A DNA stretch of 64,000 nt from NCBI RefSeq assembly GCF_044324785.1, contig NZ_CP172127.1; one strand, given 5' to 3'. This document shows, in pieces, positions 33,458 to 45,827 of this stretch. This DNA is from Escherichia coli (GTDB lineage: Bacteria > Pseudomonadota > Gammaproteobacteria > Enterobacterales > Enterobacteriaceae). A model generated the notes under the pieces. The model saw only the letters and a list, made by a program, of their open reading frames with translations, searched no databases and had not been told where the DNA came from. The translations under genes and the position numbers were made by a program. Every line of letters starts with the position of its first letter. Within the stretch, counting starts at the first letter, position 1.

Positions 33458-34333
33458 GAACACACCTTTATCTTTTATCGCTGTTCAGTATGAGTGATTA
33501 CCTGTGGATTCCTGAGCACACATAAGGGGTAACCATAAACATCAGCGATGCCATACGCATAACATCCCACATCACTATCAAAAAGATTATCTTTACCTCT
33601 GATGCTCGCTCAAAAACAGTTACGCTAAATACCTTAAAAAGGTAATCACAAGTCAAACTCAGGAGATAATCACGCAAGAATGCAATATTAAAATTCAGAT
33701 ACTCATTTTTGGTAATAAAGAAGTAGTTGGACTATTTCAATATTTATAATTTCCCACTACGTATTGACGCCCATTCATGAGTAAAGGCGCATTATATGAA
33801 TTTAACAATCCAGATCAACTGAAAATACCTCAACCTCATAAACACATAGCGTCAACATTCAATGACATAATGAGTAAAGATGTTGGTTATGCATACACGT
33901 CATTACTCTATGCCTATCCCTTAACAACCTGCTTTTTAAGGCTGAATCCATTCAGCAATAGATAGCCAACATTATAACAATGACAATAAAAACAATATTT
34001 AAAACAATCAATAAAATATCAGACACAGACAATTAAACCTTAAACAACAAACAGTTACATTGATTTTAGTTGATTTGCGCTACGCGTTTCCCATGAATAA
34101 AGCGTCATTTCAAATTAGCACCAATATTTACATTAAATAAGACTAAGCTTATTGAACATTCACAACAGTCCAAGCGTAGGTTTTGGGCTTCAATAGTTCT
34201 TTTCTTTTTTATTATCTGTTGCCTGGCAATCATCAATCGATACTAAGGGCTTAACTGTACACAGATATAACGTATCAAGAGGTAAGAGAAACCGCGCCAT
34301 ATGCAGACATGGCGCGGTTTTATGCAATAACAA

Positions 34334-41375: not shown

Positions 41376-42071
41376 TCAGCAATCCTCAATAATCAGATAC
41401 ACCGCTTTCACCGGGCCATGAACCCCGACGACTTTGATAAGCTCAATATCCGCCGTTGAACTAGGGCCGCTAATGATGTTAATGCAGGACGGCATTCGTT
41501 CACCGGCCTGCGCTTTCTGATGCAATTTTTCTGCGAGTTGCGCTACACGCGGCAGGATAGTGCTTTTACGCAGGATAAAAAGAGAAGATTCCGGGAGCAG
41601 GCTCAATGAACGCCCGCGCCCGGCGGCGGAAAAAAGAACCACGCCTCCCGATTCGGTTAAACCATATTCAGCATACACTACGCCAACTTTAGCCTGCTCT
41701 GCCTGCGAGATATTCTCGGCACCTTTCGCCGGATCCCAAACAACGGCATTGCATTCCTGCTGCAAACGTTCGCTAATCCCCAATTCCTCCAGCCTCGTGT
41801 CACCGCTAATCACGATCGACTGATCTCCCAGCTCTTTACACAGACGTATTGCAGCTTCTGCGGCCTGCGCCTCGCTGGTCAGTTCACAGCGCGTCAACAT
41901 AACATCGCTGGCAAACTGGATAAACGCGTCACAGCGCTGCTGTTGGTTAAGTTCGGTAAGCCGCTCGTTAGCATAGTTGTTAAGCGGCGCATCTTCTGCT
42001 TGCGGTTCAAGTCGCAGCGGGCGACCCAGTGCCTGAGCAACGTTATTCAAAAATTCGCTCCGATTATCCAT
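41376..42071 (-). CDS. ykgG: LutC-like lactate-utilisation protein
   Basis: ORF 41376..42224 trimmed to ATG 42071 (MDNRSEFLNNVAQ..., 231 aa); 8-nt overlap with ykgF. Confidence 0.88.
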   Translation of the reverse strand: MDNRSEFLNNVAQALGRPLRLEPQAEDAPLNNYANERLTELNQQQRCDAFIQFASDVMLTRCELTSEAQAAEAAIRLCKELGDQSIVISGDTRLEELGISERLQQECNAVVWDPAKGAENISQAEQAKVGVVYAEYGLTESGGVVLFSAAGRGRSLSLLPESSLFILRKSTILPRVAQLAEKLHQKAQAGERMPSCINIISGPSSTADIELIKVVGVHGPVKAVYLIIEDC

Positions 42072-43491
42072 TCTTTTTCTCCTGCGCCTGATGTTTCTTA
42101 AACCAACTACGGAAACTCTCTCCGTCAGCTTCAGGAAGATCGCGTGCTTCCATCCAGTCGCTAATCGCGCCAAATTTGAGTGGTGTTTTGCCGCCATTGA
42201 TAAACCAGCTTGCCGCATGAGCACCGGCCATCATCCCGACTTTCCACAATCCTGGATGACTATTGGCATAAGCGAACATTTTTATCGCCCGTTGCTCTGC
42301 TTTTGCGGTGATCCCTTTTTCAGCCATCACCCGACGATGACGCAAAATCAGTTTTGACAGCGGAATACGCACCGGACACACGCTGTCACAAGCAGTGCAT
42401 AAAGAGCAGGCGTAGGGTAAATCTTTAAAATCTTTATAGCCGCCAAGTAGCGGAGAAATCACCGCACCAATTGGCCCTGGATAAATAGAGCCATATCCAT
42501 GACCGCCAATGTGGCGATATGCCGGACAAGTATTCATACAAGCCCCGCAGCGAATACAGCGCAGCACATCCCGAAATTCAGAGGCCAGCACCTCAGAACG
42601 CCCGTTATCGACAATAACCAGATGAAACTCTTCAGGACCATCAACGTGCCCCGCTTCGCGCGGTCCTGTCAGCCAGGTGTTGTATCCCGTCAAACGTGCA
42701 CCAACGGCACTGCGCGCCAGCATGGTGATCAATACATCTACCTCGGCAAACGTGGGGGCAATACGCTCCATTCCCATCACTGCAATATGCGTTTTAGGCA
42801 GCGTGGTACACATTCGCGCATTACCTTCATTGGTCACCAGGCATACCGAACCGGTCTCTGCCACCGCGAAATTACAGCCGGTAATACCTATTTCAGCACT
42901 GAGGAAATCTTCGCGGATTTTTTGCCGGATGAATAAGGTCATTGCTTCAGGCGTTTCCGACCCCTCATAGCCCAGACGTTCGTGTAGCACCCGACGGATC
43001 TGATGGCGATCTTTATGAATTGCCGGGACCACAACATGAGAGGGCGGATCTTGATCCAGCTGGAGAATGTATTCACCCAGATCGGTTTCAATCACCTGAA
43101 TGCCAGCATCCTGCAACACATGATTGACACCAATCTCTTCGGTCACCATCGATTTAGATTTCACCACCTTCCGGGCATTTTTGCGTTGGGCAACCTGTAA
43201 AATGTAGCGGGTAGCGTCTTCTTTGGTTTTTGCAAAATAGACGTGACCGCCGTTTTGCGTCACTTTTTCTGAGAGCTGGTACAGATAAGCGTCGAGATTA
43301 CTCAGAACATGATCACGTATCTGGGCGGCCCGATCGCGCCACTCCTCCCAGTGCCCCAATTCATCGACCATTTTTTGCCGATTTGCCCCGATACGCTGCT
43401 GCGCGTTTGCCACCGCTTTGCGCATGATCGGATCTTCAATTTGCTGACGGATGCGTGTCTTAAAATCTGTATTACTGGTTTTGATCGACAT
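42064..43491 (-). CDS. ykgF: LutB-like iron-sulfur protein
   Basis: 475-aa ORF with two CxxCxxC ferredoxin-type motifs. Confidence 0.9.
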   Translation of the reverse strand: MSIKTSNTDFKTRIRQQIEDPIMRKAVANAQQRIGANRQKMVDELGHWEEWRDRAAQIRDHVLSNLDAYLYQLSEKVTQNGGHVYFAKTKEDATRYILQVAQRKNARKVVKSKSMVTEEIGVNHVLQDAGIQVIETDLGEYILQLDQDPPSHVVVPAIHKDRHQIRRVLHERLGYEGSETPEAMTLFIRQKIREDFLSAEIGITGCNFAVAETGSVCLVTNEGNARMCTTLPKTHIAVMGMERIAPTFAEVDVLITMLARSAVGARLTGYNTWLTGPREAGHVDGPEEFHLVIVDNGRSEVLASEFRDVLRCIRCGACMNTCPAYRHIGGHGYGSIYPGPIGAVISPLLGGYKDFKDLPYACSLCTACDSVCPVRIPLSKLILRHRRVMAEKGITAKAEQRAIKMFAYANSHPGLWKVGMMAGAHAASWFINGGKTPLKFGAISDWMEARDLPEADGESFRSWFKKHQAQEKKNG

Positions 43492-43501
43492 CTTTATATC
43501 C

Positions 43502-44221
43502 TCAGCGGCTCATCAACACTTCAGCAATATGCATCACTTTGACTTTCTGCCCTTCCCGTTGTAATCGCCCACTGATGTTCAGCAGGCAACTCACGTCAGC
43601 ACCAATTAAATACTCAGGGCGGACTTCCATCAGGTGCGCAACCTTTTCTTTCACCATCTCGCCGGATATTTCGGCCATTTTGACCGAGAACGTGCCGCCA
43701 AATCCGCAGCAGGTATCCTGTTCAGCAAAGGTCAACAGCTCCAGTCCACGCACATTTTTCAGCAGCGTAAGTGGCTCGTCCTTCACCCCCAGCTTACGGG
43801 CCAGGCTACAAGATGGGTGATACACCGCTCTCCCTTGCAAACTGGCACCTACATCGACTACCCCTAATGTATTAACAATAAAAGAGGTGAGATCCTGCAT
43901 ACGCGCGGCAACCTTTTCGGCACGTGATGCCCATTCAGGTTCATCCGCCAGATACGTCGGGTAACTTTTTACGGCATAGGTGCAAGAGCCAGCCGGTGAA
44001 ATAATGGGATCGTCGTTATCCTCCAGTGCGGCGATCAGATTTTTCATCCCTGGAATCGCTTCTTTGATATAACCACTATTGATCGCAGGCTGACCGCAGC
44101 ATCCCTGTTTCTCCGGGAAATTTACGCGACAGCCGAGTTTTTCCAGTAGCAGCACGGAGTCTCGTGCCATTCTTGATTTCAGGGCGTCACCAATACAGGT
44201 GACAAAGAAATTGACATTCAC
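43502..44221 (-). CDS. ykgE: LutA-like cysteine-rich (CCG-domain) oxidoreductase subunit
   Basis: 239-aa ORF with CCG-type cysteine clusters; first gene of ykgEFG. Confidence 0.9.
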   Translation of the reverse strand: MNVNFFVTCIGDALKSRMARDSVLLLEKLGCRVNFPEKQGCCGQPAINSGYIKEAIPGMKNLIAALEDNDDPIISPAGSCTYAVKSYPTYLADEPEWASRAEKVAARMQDLTSFIVNTLGVVDVGASLQGRAVYHPSCSLARKLGVKDEPLTLLKNVRGLELLTFAEQDTCCGFGGTFSVKMAEISGEMVKEKVAHLMEVRPEYLIGADVSCLLNISGRLQREGQKVKVMHIAEVLMSR

Positions 44222-44747
44222 AACTAATACTCCATTACTTCATGCCCATTTATGCCCGATGGTTCCCCCCTTCCGGGGGATCAATCATCAATAAATATGG
44301 CGTTCTTTTTTAATTGGCTAGCAACATACCACCCCTCATTTGTATGACAAATGATAATCTTTCATCCAAACTTCAAATGCAATAACTAATTTTATTTCTT
44401 TCGGCATCGCTCACATTTTATAGGGAAATCGACGATCATTTTTGGCATAAGAAATCCATTTAAAAAGGCTACATCCCTTATACCTATTCAGTGCTACTTA
44501 TTCAGGGGTTATTGAGATATACACTGATGGTGTACAAACAAAATCACCAACAATAATTACGTATCAAGTAATAATCGGCATTTTATTTAATTGAAGCAAT
44601 TTAGTTTGCATTTTTATTTAAAAACTGAGCTAGAGTCCATCAGAAAAAATATATAAAGCCCAAACCACCGTTGGAAATAGAAATAGTTGAAAGGCTCACA
44701 ACTCCCGGAATGCGGATTATCTTTGCCCTGATTTCTGGCGGTTTTAT

Positions 44748-45602
44748 TCAGGGTGCAAGCTGTCTGACCCTTTCCCGATATTCTCCCGGAGTACAACCAA
44801 ACTCGCGGACAAACGCCTTGTGAAAAGAGGATTCACTGGCATAGCCTACTGACTCAGCGATCACCGCAACAGGGAGCGTTTCCCGGGAAAACATCTGGGC
44901 CGCTATTTGTAGACGCAACTTTGTTAATACAGACAGCGGCGTGGTTCCGGAAACATCACGGAAAAGCAGGGCAAAACTTGCCCGGGACATGTGGGCGATG
45001 CTGGCCAGCGATTCGACGGTCCAGGCGTGTCCTGGCATTTCCAGCATTTGCTGTATTACCGCACCAAGACGTGGATGCAGAAGCAAACTGAGAATGTTTT
45101 TCTCAGTATTAACCTGTGCAATCCACTCACGCACCGCGAGGATAAAGAATGTAGCGCAGATCTGGCTACACAGTGCATCCACTCCCGGCATTGCCGATCT
45201 GGATTCCTGTTGTAAAAACGGGATCGCCTCCCTCAGCCAGTTATATTCCACGCTGTGGTTAACCGGTGCTAAAAACAGCGTTTCCGGCAAAGACGTTAAA
45301 AAATAACGCGCCGAATGTTGCAGCCGAAGAGTGCCGCAGACAATACAGGTCGATTCATTATCGACATGACTCAGGCGATGAGCTGAATTTTGTGGTAGCA
45401 GGACCACATTTCCCGGGCGTAATGTAAAAATCTCCCCCGTCGGCATTTCCAGCTTCGCCGCTCCTTGCGTTAACGCATGCCAACGAATAACCGATAATTC
45501 CCCGGCACCATGTGGAAGCTGCCAGTCACTTCCTAACACGCAATTCTTATCGATCGTTCCTTGTGGAGCGTTAAGCATCAACAAACGGCTAAGGGCATCC
45601 AT
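44748..45602 (-). CDS. rclR: AraC-family reactive-chlorine-responsive activator
   Basis: 284-aa ORF with C-terminal AraC HTH, divergent from rclA; matches RclR/YkgD. Confidence 0.9.
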   Translation of the reverse strand: MDALSRLLMLNAPQGTIDKNCVLGSDWQLPHGAGELSVIRWHALTQGAAKLEMPTGEIFTLRPGNVVLLPQNSAHRLSHVDNESTCIVCGTLRLQHSARYFLTSLPETLFLAPVNHSVEYNWLREAIPFLQQESRSAMPGVDALCSQICATFFILAVREWIAQVNTEKNILSLLLHPRLGAVIQQMLEMPGHAWTVESLASIAHMSRASFALLFRDVSGTTPLSVLTKLRLQIAAQMFSRETLPVAVIAESVGYASESSFHKAFVREFGCTPGEYRERVRQLAP

Positions 45603-45827
45603 ATCAGACTCCTGAGTGGTTTTTGATTACAAACACCAACAATCTTACACAATAATTAATCTAATACCATCAAATGGTTAATCATGGTTATTGTTTTTTG
45701 ACTCTGATTAAGAAAAAGAAAATACCAGACGATAAGACAAAATATCAAGCGTTGTGAAGAAATGTTATTTGCTCTTTTGCGTCTATAGTCATGATGTCAA
45801 ATGAACGCGTTTCGACAGGAAATCATC

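Follow-up and report, generated by a model that had tools for sequence, protein, structure and literature searches.

A predicted stem-loop in the 5' leader of the Escherichia coli ykgEFG operon, possibly descended from an intercistronic hairpin

YkgEFG is a LutABC-type respiratory L-lactate dehydrogenase that matters in anaerobic nitrate respiration on L-lactate (PMC9701030), and the DNA in front of its operon in Escherichia coli carries a short GC-rich hairpin within a long AT-rich spacer. What this hairpin does, if it does anything, is the question addressed here. It had been pointed out in an earlier note on a 64,000-nucleotide stretch of E. coli DNA (contig NZ_CP172127.1, hereafter the window), which placed it in the likely 5' untranslated region (UTR) of ykgE and proposed it as a possible regulatory structure for the operon. 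The genes and signals around it are the following.

42064-43491, minus strand: ykgF (ykgG is also on this strand)
43502-44221, minus strand: ykgE (lutA-like) coding sequence with a GTG start, from the list of open reading frames
44222-44747: rclR-ykgE intergenic spacer, 526 bp, 35% GC
44230-44233, minus strand: Shine-Dalgarno sequence GGAG, 8 nt 5' of the GTG and kept in nearly all orthologues
44264-44280, minus strand: GC hairpin, UCCCCC-GGAAG-GGGGGA
44748-45602, minus strand: rclR, from the list of open reading frames

The sequence and the open reading frames agree in showing a 526-bp AT-rich spacer between rclR and ykgE, both on the same strand, as had been described, with a GC content of 35.4% versus 50.1% for the whole window. 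The start of rclA, a divergent gene, is at 45801. The spacer of K-12 is also 526 bp long (321082-321607) and holds no annotated features, and the 671 bases around the hairpin were matched in 5,195 of the 5,426 complete E. coli genomes, the top match being strain 1190 with 99.9% identity. K-12 coordinates were converted to the window as 44221 + (321608 - K-12 position). The distal AT-rich part of the spacer can be aligned between E. coli and other Escherichia species up to around 44650, despite the fact that the gene upstream in those species codes for an aldo-keto reductase instead of rclR, supporting that this distal part is upstream regulatory DNA of ykgE. Consequently, the description of the spacer as a long AT-rich 5' region of the operon is right in that it is DNA upstream of ykgE, but not in the sense that its distal AT-rich part belongs to the 5' UTR. 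Two candidates for conserved upstream open reading frames were discarded: neither ATG-GGC-ATG-AAG-TAA, beside the Shine-Dalgarno sequence, nor one coding for MLLAN* at 44327-44310 is kept in other Escherichia species.

Direct reading of the sequence confirmed the 6-bp GC hairpin at 44264-44280, where the plus strand reads TCCCCC-CTTCC-GGGGGA and forms a perfect stem. Its distance of about 45 nt from the ykgE start was also accurate, as the 3' end of the stem is 42 nt and its centre around 51 nt away from the GTG. The stem alone, with five G-C pairs out of six, has a folding energy of -12.6 kcal/mol, and it can also be drawn in an alternative register, CCCCC-GGAA-GGGGG, with an added U.G pair. 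When the spacer was shuffled 2000 times with its dinucleotides preserved, stems of this class (perfect, at least 6 bp with at least five G-C pairs, and a loop of 3-8 nt) appeared in 2.2% of the shuffles; from their density over all 64 kb of the window, which contains 29, around 0.24 would be expected per 526 bp.

In published SMRT-Cappable-seq data (PMC6131387), a native transcript covering b0306/b0307/b0308 starts at 321483 (228 reads) and ends at 324602 (40 reads). K-12 position 321483 corresponds to 44346 in the window, 8 nt past the -10 hexamer; the coordinates were mapped through the alignment of K-12 and the window, in which both leaders have the same length. The elements of the promoter and leader are placed as follows.

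44222-44346, minus strand: ykgEFG 5' UTR, 125 nt, from the SMRT-Cappable-seq start mapped through the alignment of K-12 and the window
44336-44354, minus strand: YieP operator, palindrome TCATTTGTCATACAAATGA, overlapping the -10 hexamer and the start site, from the Reg-Seq energy matrix and mass spectrometry
44346, minus strand: transcription start site (+/-1 nt), from SMRT-Cappable-seq and in agreement with the -10 footprint
44354-44359, minus strand: -10 hexamer GATTAT, Reg-Seq footprint indices 72-78
44377-44382, minus strand: -35 hexamer TTGCAT, separated by 17 bp from the -10, Reg-Seq indices 48-55
44397-44419, minus strand: activator region assigned to FNR by Reg-Seq, centred at about -61

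Since the start site is at 44346, the GC hairpin occupies positions +67 to +83 of the 125-nt leader. Its location in the 5' UTR, which had been put forward as likely, is supported by two independent data sets, the SMRT-Cappable-seq start and the RNA polymerase footprints of Reg-Seq, and the finding that had been named as contrary to the proposal, a start downstream of the hairpin, is the opposite of what the published start shows. An entry for ykgE was not found in the text portion of the Cappable-seq supplements (Ettwiller 2016).

The control of this promoter is well described. In the Reg-Seq study, K-12 positions 321396-321556 were mutagenised, and RNA polymerase contacts were detected at indices 48-55 and 72-78, which were retained in a yieP deletion strain, together with a repressor site at indices 80-94 that was attributed to YieP by mass spectrometry and knockout (PMC7567609). 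We anchored the published YieP matrix on the sequence to obtain the positions of the promoter elements. The motif of YieP obtained by ChIP-exo is atTTGTaTGAcaAAT, and deletion of yieP increases ykgEFG around 10-fold (PMC7642389); the operator at 44336-44354 fits this motif. The activator region includes a CRP/FNR-family half-site, AAATGTGA, and shows 92-97% identity in other Escherichia species, being also conserved in Citrobacter, while the -35 hexamer TTGCAT is invariant across both genera. An activation of the FNR type fits the phenotype described for ykgEFG mutants, which concerns L-lactate and is anaerobic and dependent on nitrate (PMC9701030). A table derived from RegulonDB (PMC10100675) gives Lrp, YieP and Nac as regulators of ykgE, with no site positions for Lrp and Nac. 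The on/off control known for the operon sits at the promoter, through YieP repression and FNR-type activation, 60-150 bp further upstream than the hairpin. Another promoter, TTGTCA-16-TATGTT at 44350-44323, was favoured by sequence scanning and coincides with the computational start used in Reg-Seq (321511, position 0), but it was rejected, as the Reg-Seq contacts are around 30 bp upstream, at TTGCAT/GATTAT, with no signal at this site, and the SMRT-Cappable-seq start disagrees with it too. Since the insert used in Reg-Seq stopped at about 44273, halfway through the hairpin, that study is silent about it. The ykgE promoter is a model for quantitative studies of regulation such as Reg-Seq, and a 125-nt structured leader that is halved by the Reg-Seq construct is relevant to expression models and to reporter design.

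Besides the GC hairpin, the spacer has a single perfect inverted repeat of 6 bp or longer, the YieP operator, which resembles the hairpin in this respect; the operator is, moreover, one that has been shown to regulate the operon. Unlike the GC hairpin, the operator is AT-rich, fits atTTGTaTGAcaAAT, works at the level of DNA and lies 56-90 bp upstream of the hairpin. No resemblance to the YieP motif was detected in the GC hairpin.

Folding of the leader RNA placed the GC hairpin on top of a longer structure.

44244-44301, minus strand: extended imperfect stem-loop, 58 nt, from folding, with the GC hairpin as its apex

This stem-loop begins at +46, has its apex at +67 and stands around 30 nt 5' of the ribosome-binding site. 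Its outer AU-rich helices are GCC/GGC, UAUUUAU/AUAAAUG and UGAU/AUCG, and the complete helix has about 23 pairs with four interruptions in E. coli. Folded alone, the 58 nt reach -25.4 kcal/mol, with identical minimum free energy (MFE) and centroid structures and a z-score of -2.5, in such a way that none of 200 shuffles was as stable. The same stem-loop was recovered in the MFE and centroid folds of the full leader for both main alleles, with a pair probability of around 0.92 for the apex in the full-leader ensemble; the full leader itself has a z-score of about 0 against shuffles, showing no excess of structure. A separate small hairpin is predicted to present the Shine-Dalgarno sequence. In silico, the accessibility of the ribosome-binding site was 0.52 for the wild type versus 0.46 +/- 0.085 when the 5' arm was scrambled, a small effect.

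No part of the spacer varies more within E. coli than the hairpin, whose identity is 82-88% versus 95-100% elsewhere. Five alleles were found among 12 strains and 13 metagenome contigs, in which the changes are confined to the loop, the loop-closing pair and the lengths of the runs: GGAA (the window), GGUG with an extra G (K-12), GGU, C4 with GGGU (O157), and CCCCA with GGU. All five retain a stem of 5-6 bp, with energies from -8.6 to -12.7 kcal/mol. The metagenome contigs, detected by a pattern scan, contained only two of them, the K-12 type in 11 contigs and the window type in the other 2. The allele of the window is that of B2 strains, and its GGAA loop also appears in Escherichia sp. E1V33 and E. 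whittamii; due to this shared loop, the GGAA allele is probably the ancestral one. A single T-to-A change in one arm, at the position equivalent to 44293, was seen in B strains.

The comparison among species was based on an alignment of 11 leaders. Eight of them come from E. coli strains that are nearly identical, and the rest from three other lineages of the genus in which ykgE is present: Escherichia sp. E1V33, E. whittamii and L005, a divergent genome deposited as E. coli strain SCPM-O-B-8794. When the L005 leader was compared with complete E. coli genomes, no closer relative was found, the top matches being B2 strains with 77.7%. In the other Escherichia species the apex is reduced to (A)ACCC/GGG(U)U and the outer helix is more regular, the stem-loop of E1V33 having around 19 near-continuous pairs plus the apex, with -23.1 kcal/mol and a z-score of -4.9. 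The RNAalifold consensus of the 11 leaders is the extended stem-loop, and 97.2% of the cells were paired on this consensus versus 37-48% in controls slid by 1-3 columns, in a test where the structure scored derives from the same 11 sequences used to score it. Five pairs vary on one side only, and the pairing is kept each time (U.G to U-A or C-G). Inside the stem-loop there is one compensatory pair (columns 73/89, C-G to A-U), probably representing one event in a sample that is small and lopsided in phylogeny; a second compensatory pair (columns 117/129, U-A to C-G) belongs to the separate Shine-Dalgarno hairpin. These comparisons provide modest support, suggestive of a real RNA structure that would be conserved in Escherichia leaders.

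Outside Escherichia, the promoter module has hardly changed in Citrobacter (AAATGTGAGC..CCGAAAGAAATAAA, TTGCAT, GATTAT and the YieP operator), and what follows it is different. In C. gillenii and Citrobacter sp. Res13 the module is located upstream of an intact dld, the gene for D-lactate dehydrogenase, and ykgE starts 133 nt after dld, in such a way that an identical promoter and YieP operator stand ahead of dld in operons of the C. gillenii type. Directly before the ribosome-binding site of ykgE, these two genomes have a terminator-shaped hairpin, CCGGGCGGC-GAUGU-GCCGCCGG-UUUU, whose position aligns with that of the E. coli hairpin. The same dld-ykgEFG junction was found on E. coli plasmids with 98% identity, and this arrangement has been described in plasmid pFec10 (PMC7984374).

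For the C. freundii complex, a ykgE leader of 190-220 nt was found, in which the 5' UTR and ribosome-binding site of dld are fused to the last 22 codons or so of this gene. The local alignment of these 5' and 3' remnants of dld reached a score of 73, which was matched by none of 2000 shuffles, and an internal deletion of dld is clear here. The leader also holds a hairpin, CUUGAUAU-NNNN-AUAUCAAG, in the same place relative to the conserved ATGAAGCAATGGAG, for which the variants comprise three loop changes, one G.U pair (C. youngae ATCC 29220) and one deletion that still folds. Hence, three unrelated hairpin sequences occupy one position before the conserved ATGAAGCAATGGAG in Escherichia and Citrobacter.

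The leaders of Citrobacter and E. coli share only the last 45 nt or so and the promoter/operator. Homology between their stems and left flanks was not statistically detectable, and the local alignment of the E. coli leader with the 3' end of dld or with the dld-ykgE spacer was no better than with shuffles, for which reason the idea of a dld 3' remnant in the E. coli leader was dropped. From its position, we infer that the E. coli hairpin possibly descends from the hairpin between dld and ykgE. More distantly, a YieP-type operator with a perfect core, TGTCATACAAA, precedes ykgE in Proteus, and Pluralibacter has an operator-like TCATCATACAAAT there. In these YieP-regulated leaders a comparable hairpin was not found, supporting that the operon can in general do without it. 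The conservation across Enterobacteriaceae that the earlier note had suggested looking for was seen for the pairing within Escherichia; in Citrobacter different hairpins stand at the same position, and Pluralibacter has no comparable one.

The explanation that we favour, to which we assign a probability of around 45%, is that the stem-loop is a passive structural element of the leader, inherited from an intercistronic hairpin. It would work in cis as an RNA structure with neither sensor nor switch, forming a stable roadblock that would buffer the leader against nuclease attack in the 5'-to-3' direction, and it could also act as an insulator that holds the flanking AU-rich sequence off the ribosome-binding site; an effect on stability is favoured over a translational one because of the small change computed in the accessibility of this site. 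Its origin would probably be an ancestral dld-ykgEFG operon under YieP control, an arrangement that survives in C. gillenii and on E. coli plasmids. The earlier interpretation is partly supported, in the location within the 5' UTR and, modestly, in the existence of a real RNA structure; a regulatory role of the hairpin is hypothetical.

Structured hairpins in 5' UTRs, such as the leader stem-loops of the ompA type and other obstacles to the scanning of RNase E, stabilise mRNA or hinder this enzyme. Like them, the ykgE stem-loop is stable, is embedded in an AU-rich leader, lies upstream of an accessible ribosome-binding site and has no ligand-binding architecture; unlike them, it is set back from the very 5' end of the leader. 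With the dld-ykgE hairpin of the C. gillenii type it shares the position relative to ATGAAGCAATGGAG, a GC-rich stem, AU-rich flanks and a location downstream of the same YieP-controlled promoter, but the stem is CCGGGCGGC/GCCGCCGG followed by UUUU there, and UCCCCC/GGGGGA without UUUU in E. coli. Nothing pointing to a sensor was seen in the stem-loop. A search of 43400-45700 against Rfam 15 with permissive E-values gave no relevant match, only two chance-level ones (E>3) to unrelated eukaryotic or archaeal families, none of them in the spacer, and the leader lacks the conservation of sequence and structure across the genera sharing ykgE that is expected from a curated cis-regulatory RNA.

The main rival explanation, less likely in our estimation, is that the hairpin is a functionless relic. 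It would be left over from a terminator or an intercistronic hairpin once located after dld, or after some other gene upstream, ykgEFG being later joined directly to the YieP promoter and the C- and G-runs persisting through slow decay. The terminator-shaped hairpin with its UUUU after intact dld in C. gillenii, Res13 and the E. coli plasmids, the directly visible deletion of dld in the C. freundii complex and the hairpin-free leaders of Proteus and Pluralibacter agree with such a history, as do the loss of any U-tract from the E. coli hairpin and its condition of most variable segment of the spacer. Against it stand a pairing that is kept while Escherichia species diverge by around 25%, also in the AU-rich outer helix, which is even more regular in the other species (with the z-score of -4.9 given above), a lower stem that is untouched in all the E. 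coli variants, and the presence of three unrelated hairpins at one place in the two genera Escherichia and Citrobacter. The frequency of about 2% in shuffles leaves some room for a chance inverted repeat, but the persistence across species speaks against it. If the palindrome worked instead as DNA, as a site where a dimeric transcription factor would form a downstream roadblock, its perfect inverted symmetry and the inclusion of Lrp and Nac among the ykgE regulators would be in its favour, but the spacing of the arms varies (loops of 4, 5 and 6 nt, with different arm lengths), leaving no fixed protein footprint, and several of the conserved pairs are G.U, workable only in the sense-strand RNA. 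We consider this pair of possibilities, a protein site or chance, the most improbable of those weighed here.

Almost as improbable is a role as attenuator or pause site, at which RNA polymerase would terminate early or be slowed within the leader. Points in its favour are a stable, GC-rich stem (-12.6 kcal/mol), a counterpart in C. gillenii that resembles an intrinsic terminator and, in the K-12-type alleles, an alternative pairing, CCCGGUG/CAUCGGG, that competes with the apex. Nevertheless, no U-tract was found 3' of the stem, where the flank reads AACCAUCGGG / AACCAUCGGGCAUAAAU, and a terminator scan of 44100-44900 gave no site on the minus strand, so the reading as an intrinsic terminator was rejected despite the GC-rich stem. 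In addition, the transcript on record runs from the start past the hairpin and through ykgG to 324602, in a method, SMRT-Cappable-seq, that selects long molecules. A 3' end in ykgE was not found in the text portion of the Term-seq supplements (Adams 2021) either, which is weak evidence because ykgE is repressed in laboratory media.

An improbable role, too, is that of a dedicated post-transcriptional site, either a target of RNase III or one for CsrA binding to a GGA in the loop and another in the Shine-Dalgarno sequence. Hairpins in the leaders of pnp, rnc and adhE are processed by RNase III, and the ykgE structure resembles them in being an imperfect helix of around 20 bp in a 5' UTR near the ribosome-binding site; the length of about 23 pairs in E. 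coli and the near-continuous helix of E1V33 would suit this enzyme, but the four interruptions of the E. coli helix are a difference from those leaders and an argument against it. Regarding CsrA, the loop is GGAA in the window allele (B2 type) and in two of the three other Escherichia species, and AGAA in the third, and the Shine-Dalgarno region AUGGAG is present in every leader compared. By contrast, GGUG or GGU forms the loop of the K-12-type allele and of most others in E. coli; the K-12 type, which is the commonest there, has GGUG and no GGA. No link of ykgE to CsrA or RNase III targets was found in the literature searched, and in PMC10100675, the one paper of that literature naming both ykgE and CsrA, ykgE appears only in the regulator table, not as a CsrA target.

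The leader stem-loop is, then, a previously undescribed but ordinary element beside an already characterised promoter. As an example of operon remodelling, it would represent a hairpin that once lay between two genes and was left behind in a new 5' UTR, with the dld-ykgEFG arrangement seen in C. gillenii and plasmids and the remnants in the C. freundii complex, and neither the leader structure nor this remodelling alters the current understanding of bacterial regulation. We regard as a long shot that respiratory L-lactate oxidation is controlled at a second point, after transcription, by RNase III, CsrA or another RNA-binding protein acting on this leader, with lineage-specific alleles that tune ykgEFG by phylogroup; should this be the case, the set of alleles at work would be GGAA (B2 and other Escherichia), GGUG (K-12 type), the run-length variants and the T-to-A change of B strains. 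Strong hairpins are also seen 60-90 nt upstream of ykgE, after a lactate permease gene, in many more distant orthologues (Photobacterium, Pasteurellaceae).

The long AT-rich DNA upstream of ykgE was compared among Escherichia species. In Escherichia sp. E1V33, E. whittamii and the divergent strain deposited as E. coli SCPM-O-B-8794 (L003-L005), the gene found upstream of ykgE is not rclR but an aldo-keto reductase gene. In spite of this different neighbor, the AT-rich stretch extending from the ykgE promoter to around position 44650 is alignable across the species, with 55-67% identity (44421-44640 compared), whereas the last ~100 bp adjacent to rclR (44641-44747) are not alignable, with an identity of ~40%, which indicates that the long AT-rich region goes with ykgE.

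Within this upstream DNA, a pair of putative regulatory sites was detected:

44481-44501, + strand, TACCTAT and TACTTAT, a pair of NarL/NarP-type heptamers that match TACYYMT

Together they make up a direct repeat of 11 nt whose copies lie 14 bp apart, ~135-155 bp before the ykgE start site, and the aligned bases in the other Escherichia species (TACCCAT and TACTCAT) still match the TACYYMT consensus. The window-wide density of this motif predicts ~0.3 occurrences in the rclR-ykgE spacer, and the pair may be due to chance. It is of interest because ykgEFG matters in nitrate respiration. The densest TACYYMT cluster of the window, with six heptamers within 350 bp, is located elsewhere (33525-33876), near the K-12 betT-pdeL (yahA) region as deduced by coordinate conversion.

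The leader also contains two mini-ORFs, the start codons of which are not conserved in the other Escherichia species compared:

44310-44327, - strand, mini-ORF AUG-UUG-CUA-GCC-AAU-UAA (MLLAN*), ykgEFG leader, preceded by a GAGGGG Shine-Dalgarno-like run
44236-44250, - strand, mini-ORF AUG-GGC-AUG-AAG-UAA, terminating at the ykgE Shine-Dalgarno sequence

Regarding strain variants, the whole rclR-ykgE spacer of the B strain BLR(DE3) (L076) differs from that of K-12 only by one T-to-A change at the equivalent of position 44293. The change falls within the extended leader hairpin, on its 5' arm, and breaks a U.G pair. This change is probably the "promoter sequence difference" noted for ykgEFG between BL21(DE3) and K-12/W (PMC7642389), and it makes a natural test allele available. 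In O157:H7 F6667 (L075), the -10 element is GACTAT versus GATTAT (position equivalent to 44357) and the YieP operator has a G-to-A change at its edge (equivalent of 44337), both co-occurring with a shortened C4 hairpin allele.

As for transcript ends, no canonical intrinsic terminator was detected 3' of rclR (44640-44747, - strand). As the best candidate, AAACCGCC, directly past the stop codon, can pair over a long range with GGUGGUUU, and a U-rich run follows ~10 nt beyond; strain EC42405 carries a deletion within this segment. According to SMRT-Cappable-seq, the ykgEFG transcript ends at K-12 324602 (window ~41227), within the spacer between the convergent ykgG and ykgH and ~149 nt past the stop codon of ykgG; this end is labeled in the data set as a novel termination site.

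Citrobacter gillenii and Citrobacter sp. Res13 have an intact dld followed by ykgEFG downstream of the promoter and YieP operator that E. coli uses for ykgE (comparison sequences L006:440-2500, L008 and L009:2250-2489). In the C. freundii complex, the ykgE leader retains from dld only the 5' UTR, the ribosome-binding site and the last ~22 codons, a pattern indicating an internal deletion of dld. Plasmids of E. coli (e.g., CP088502.1, 15686-15995) also bear the intact dld-ykgE junction, with 98% identity.
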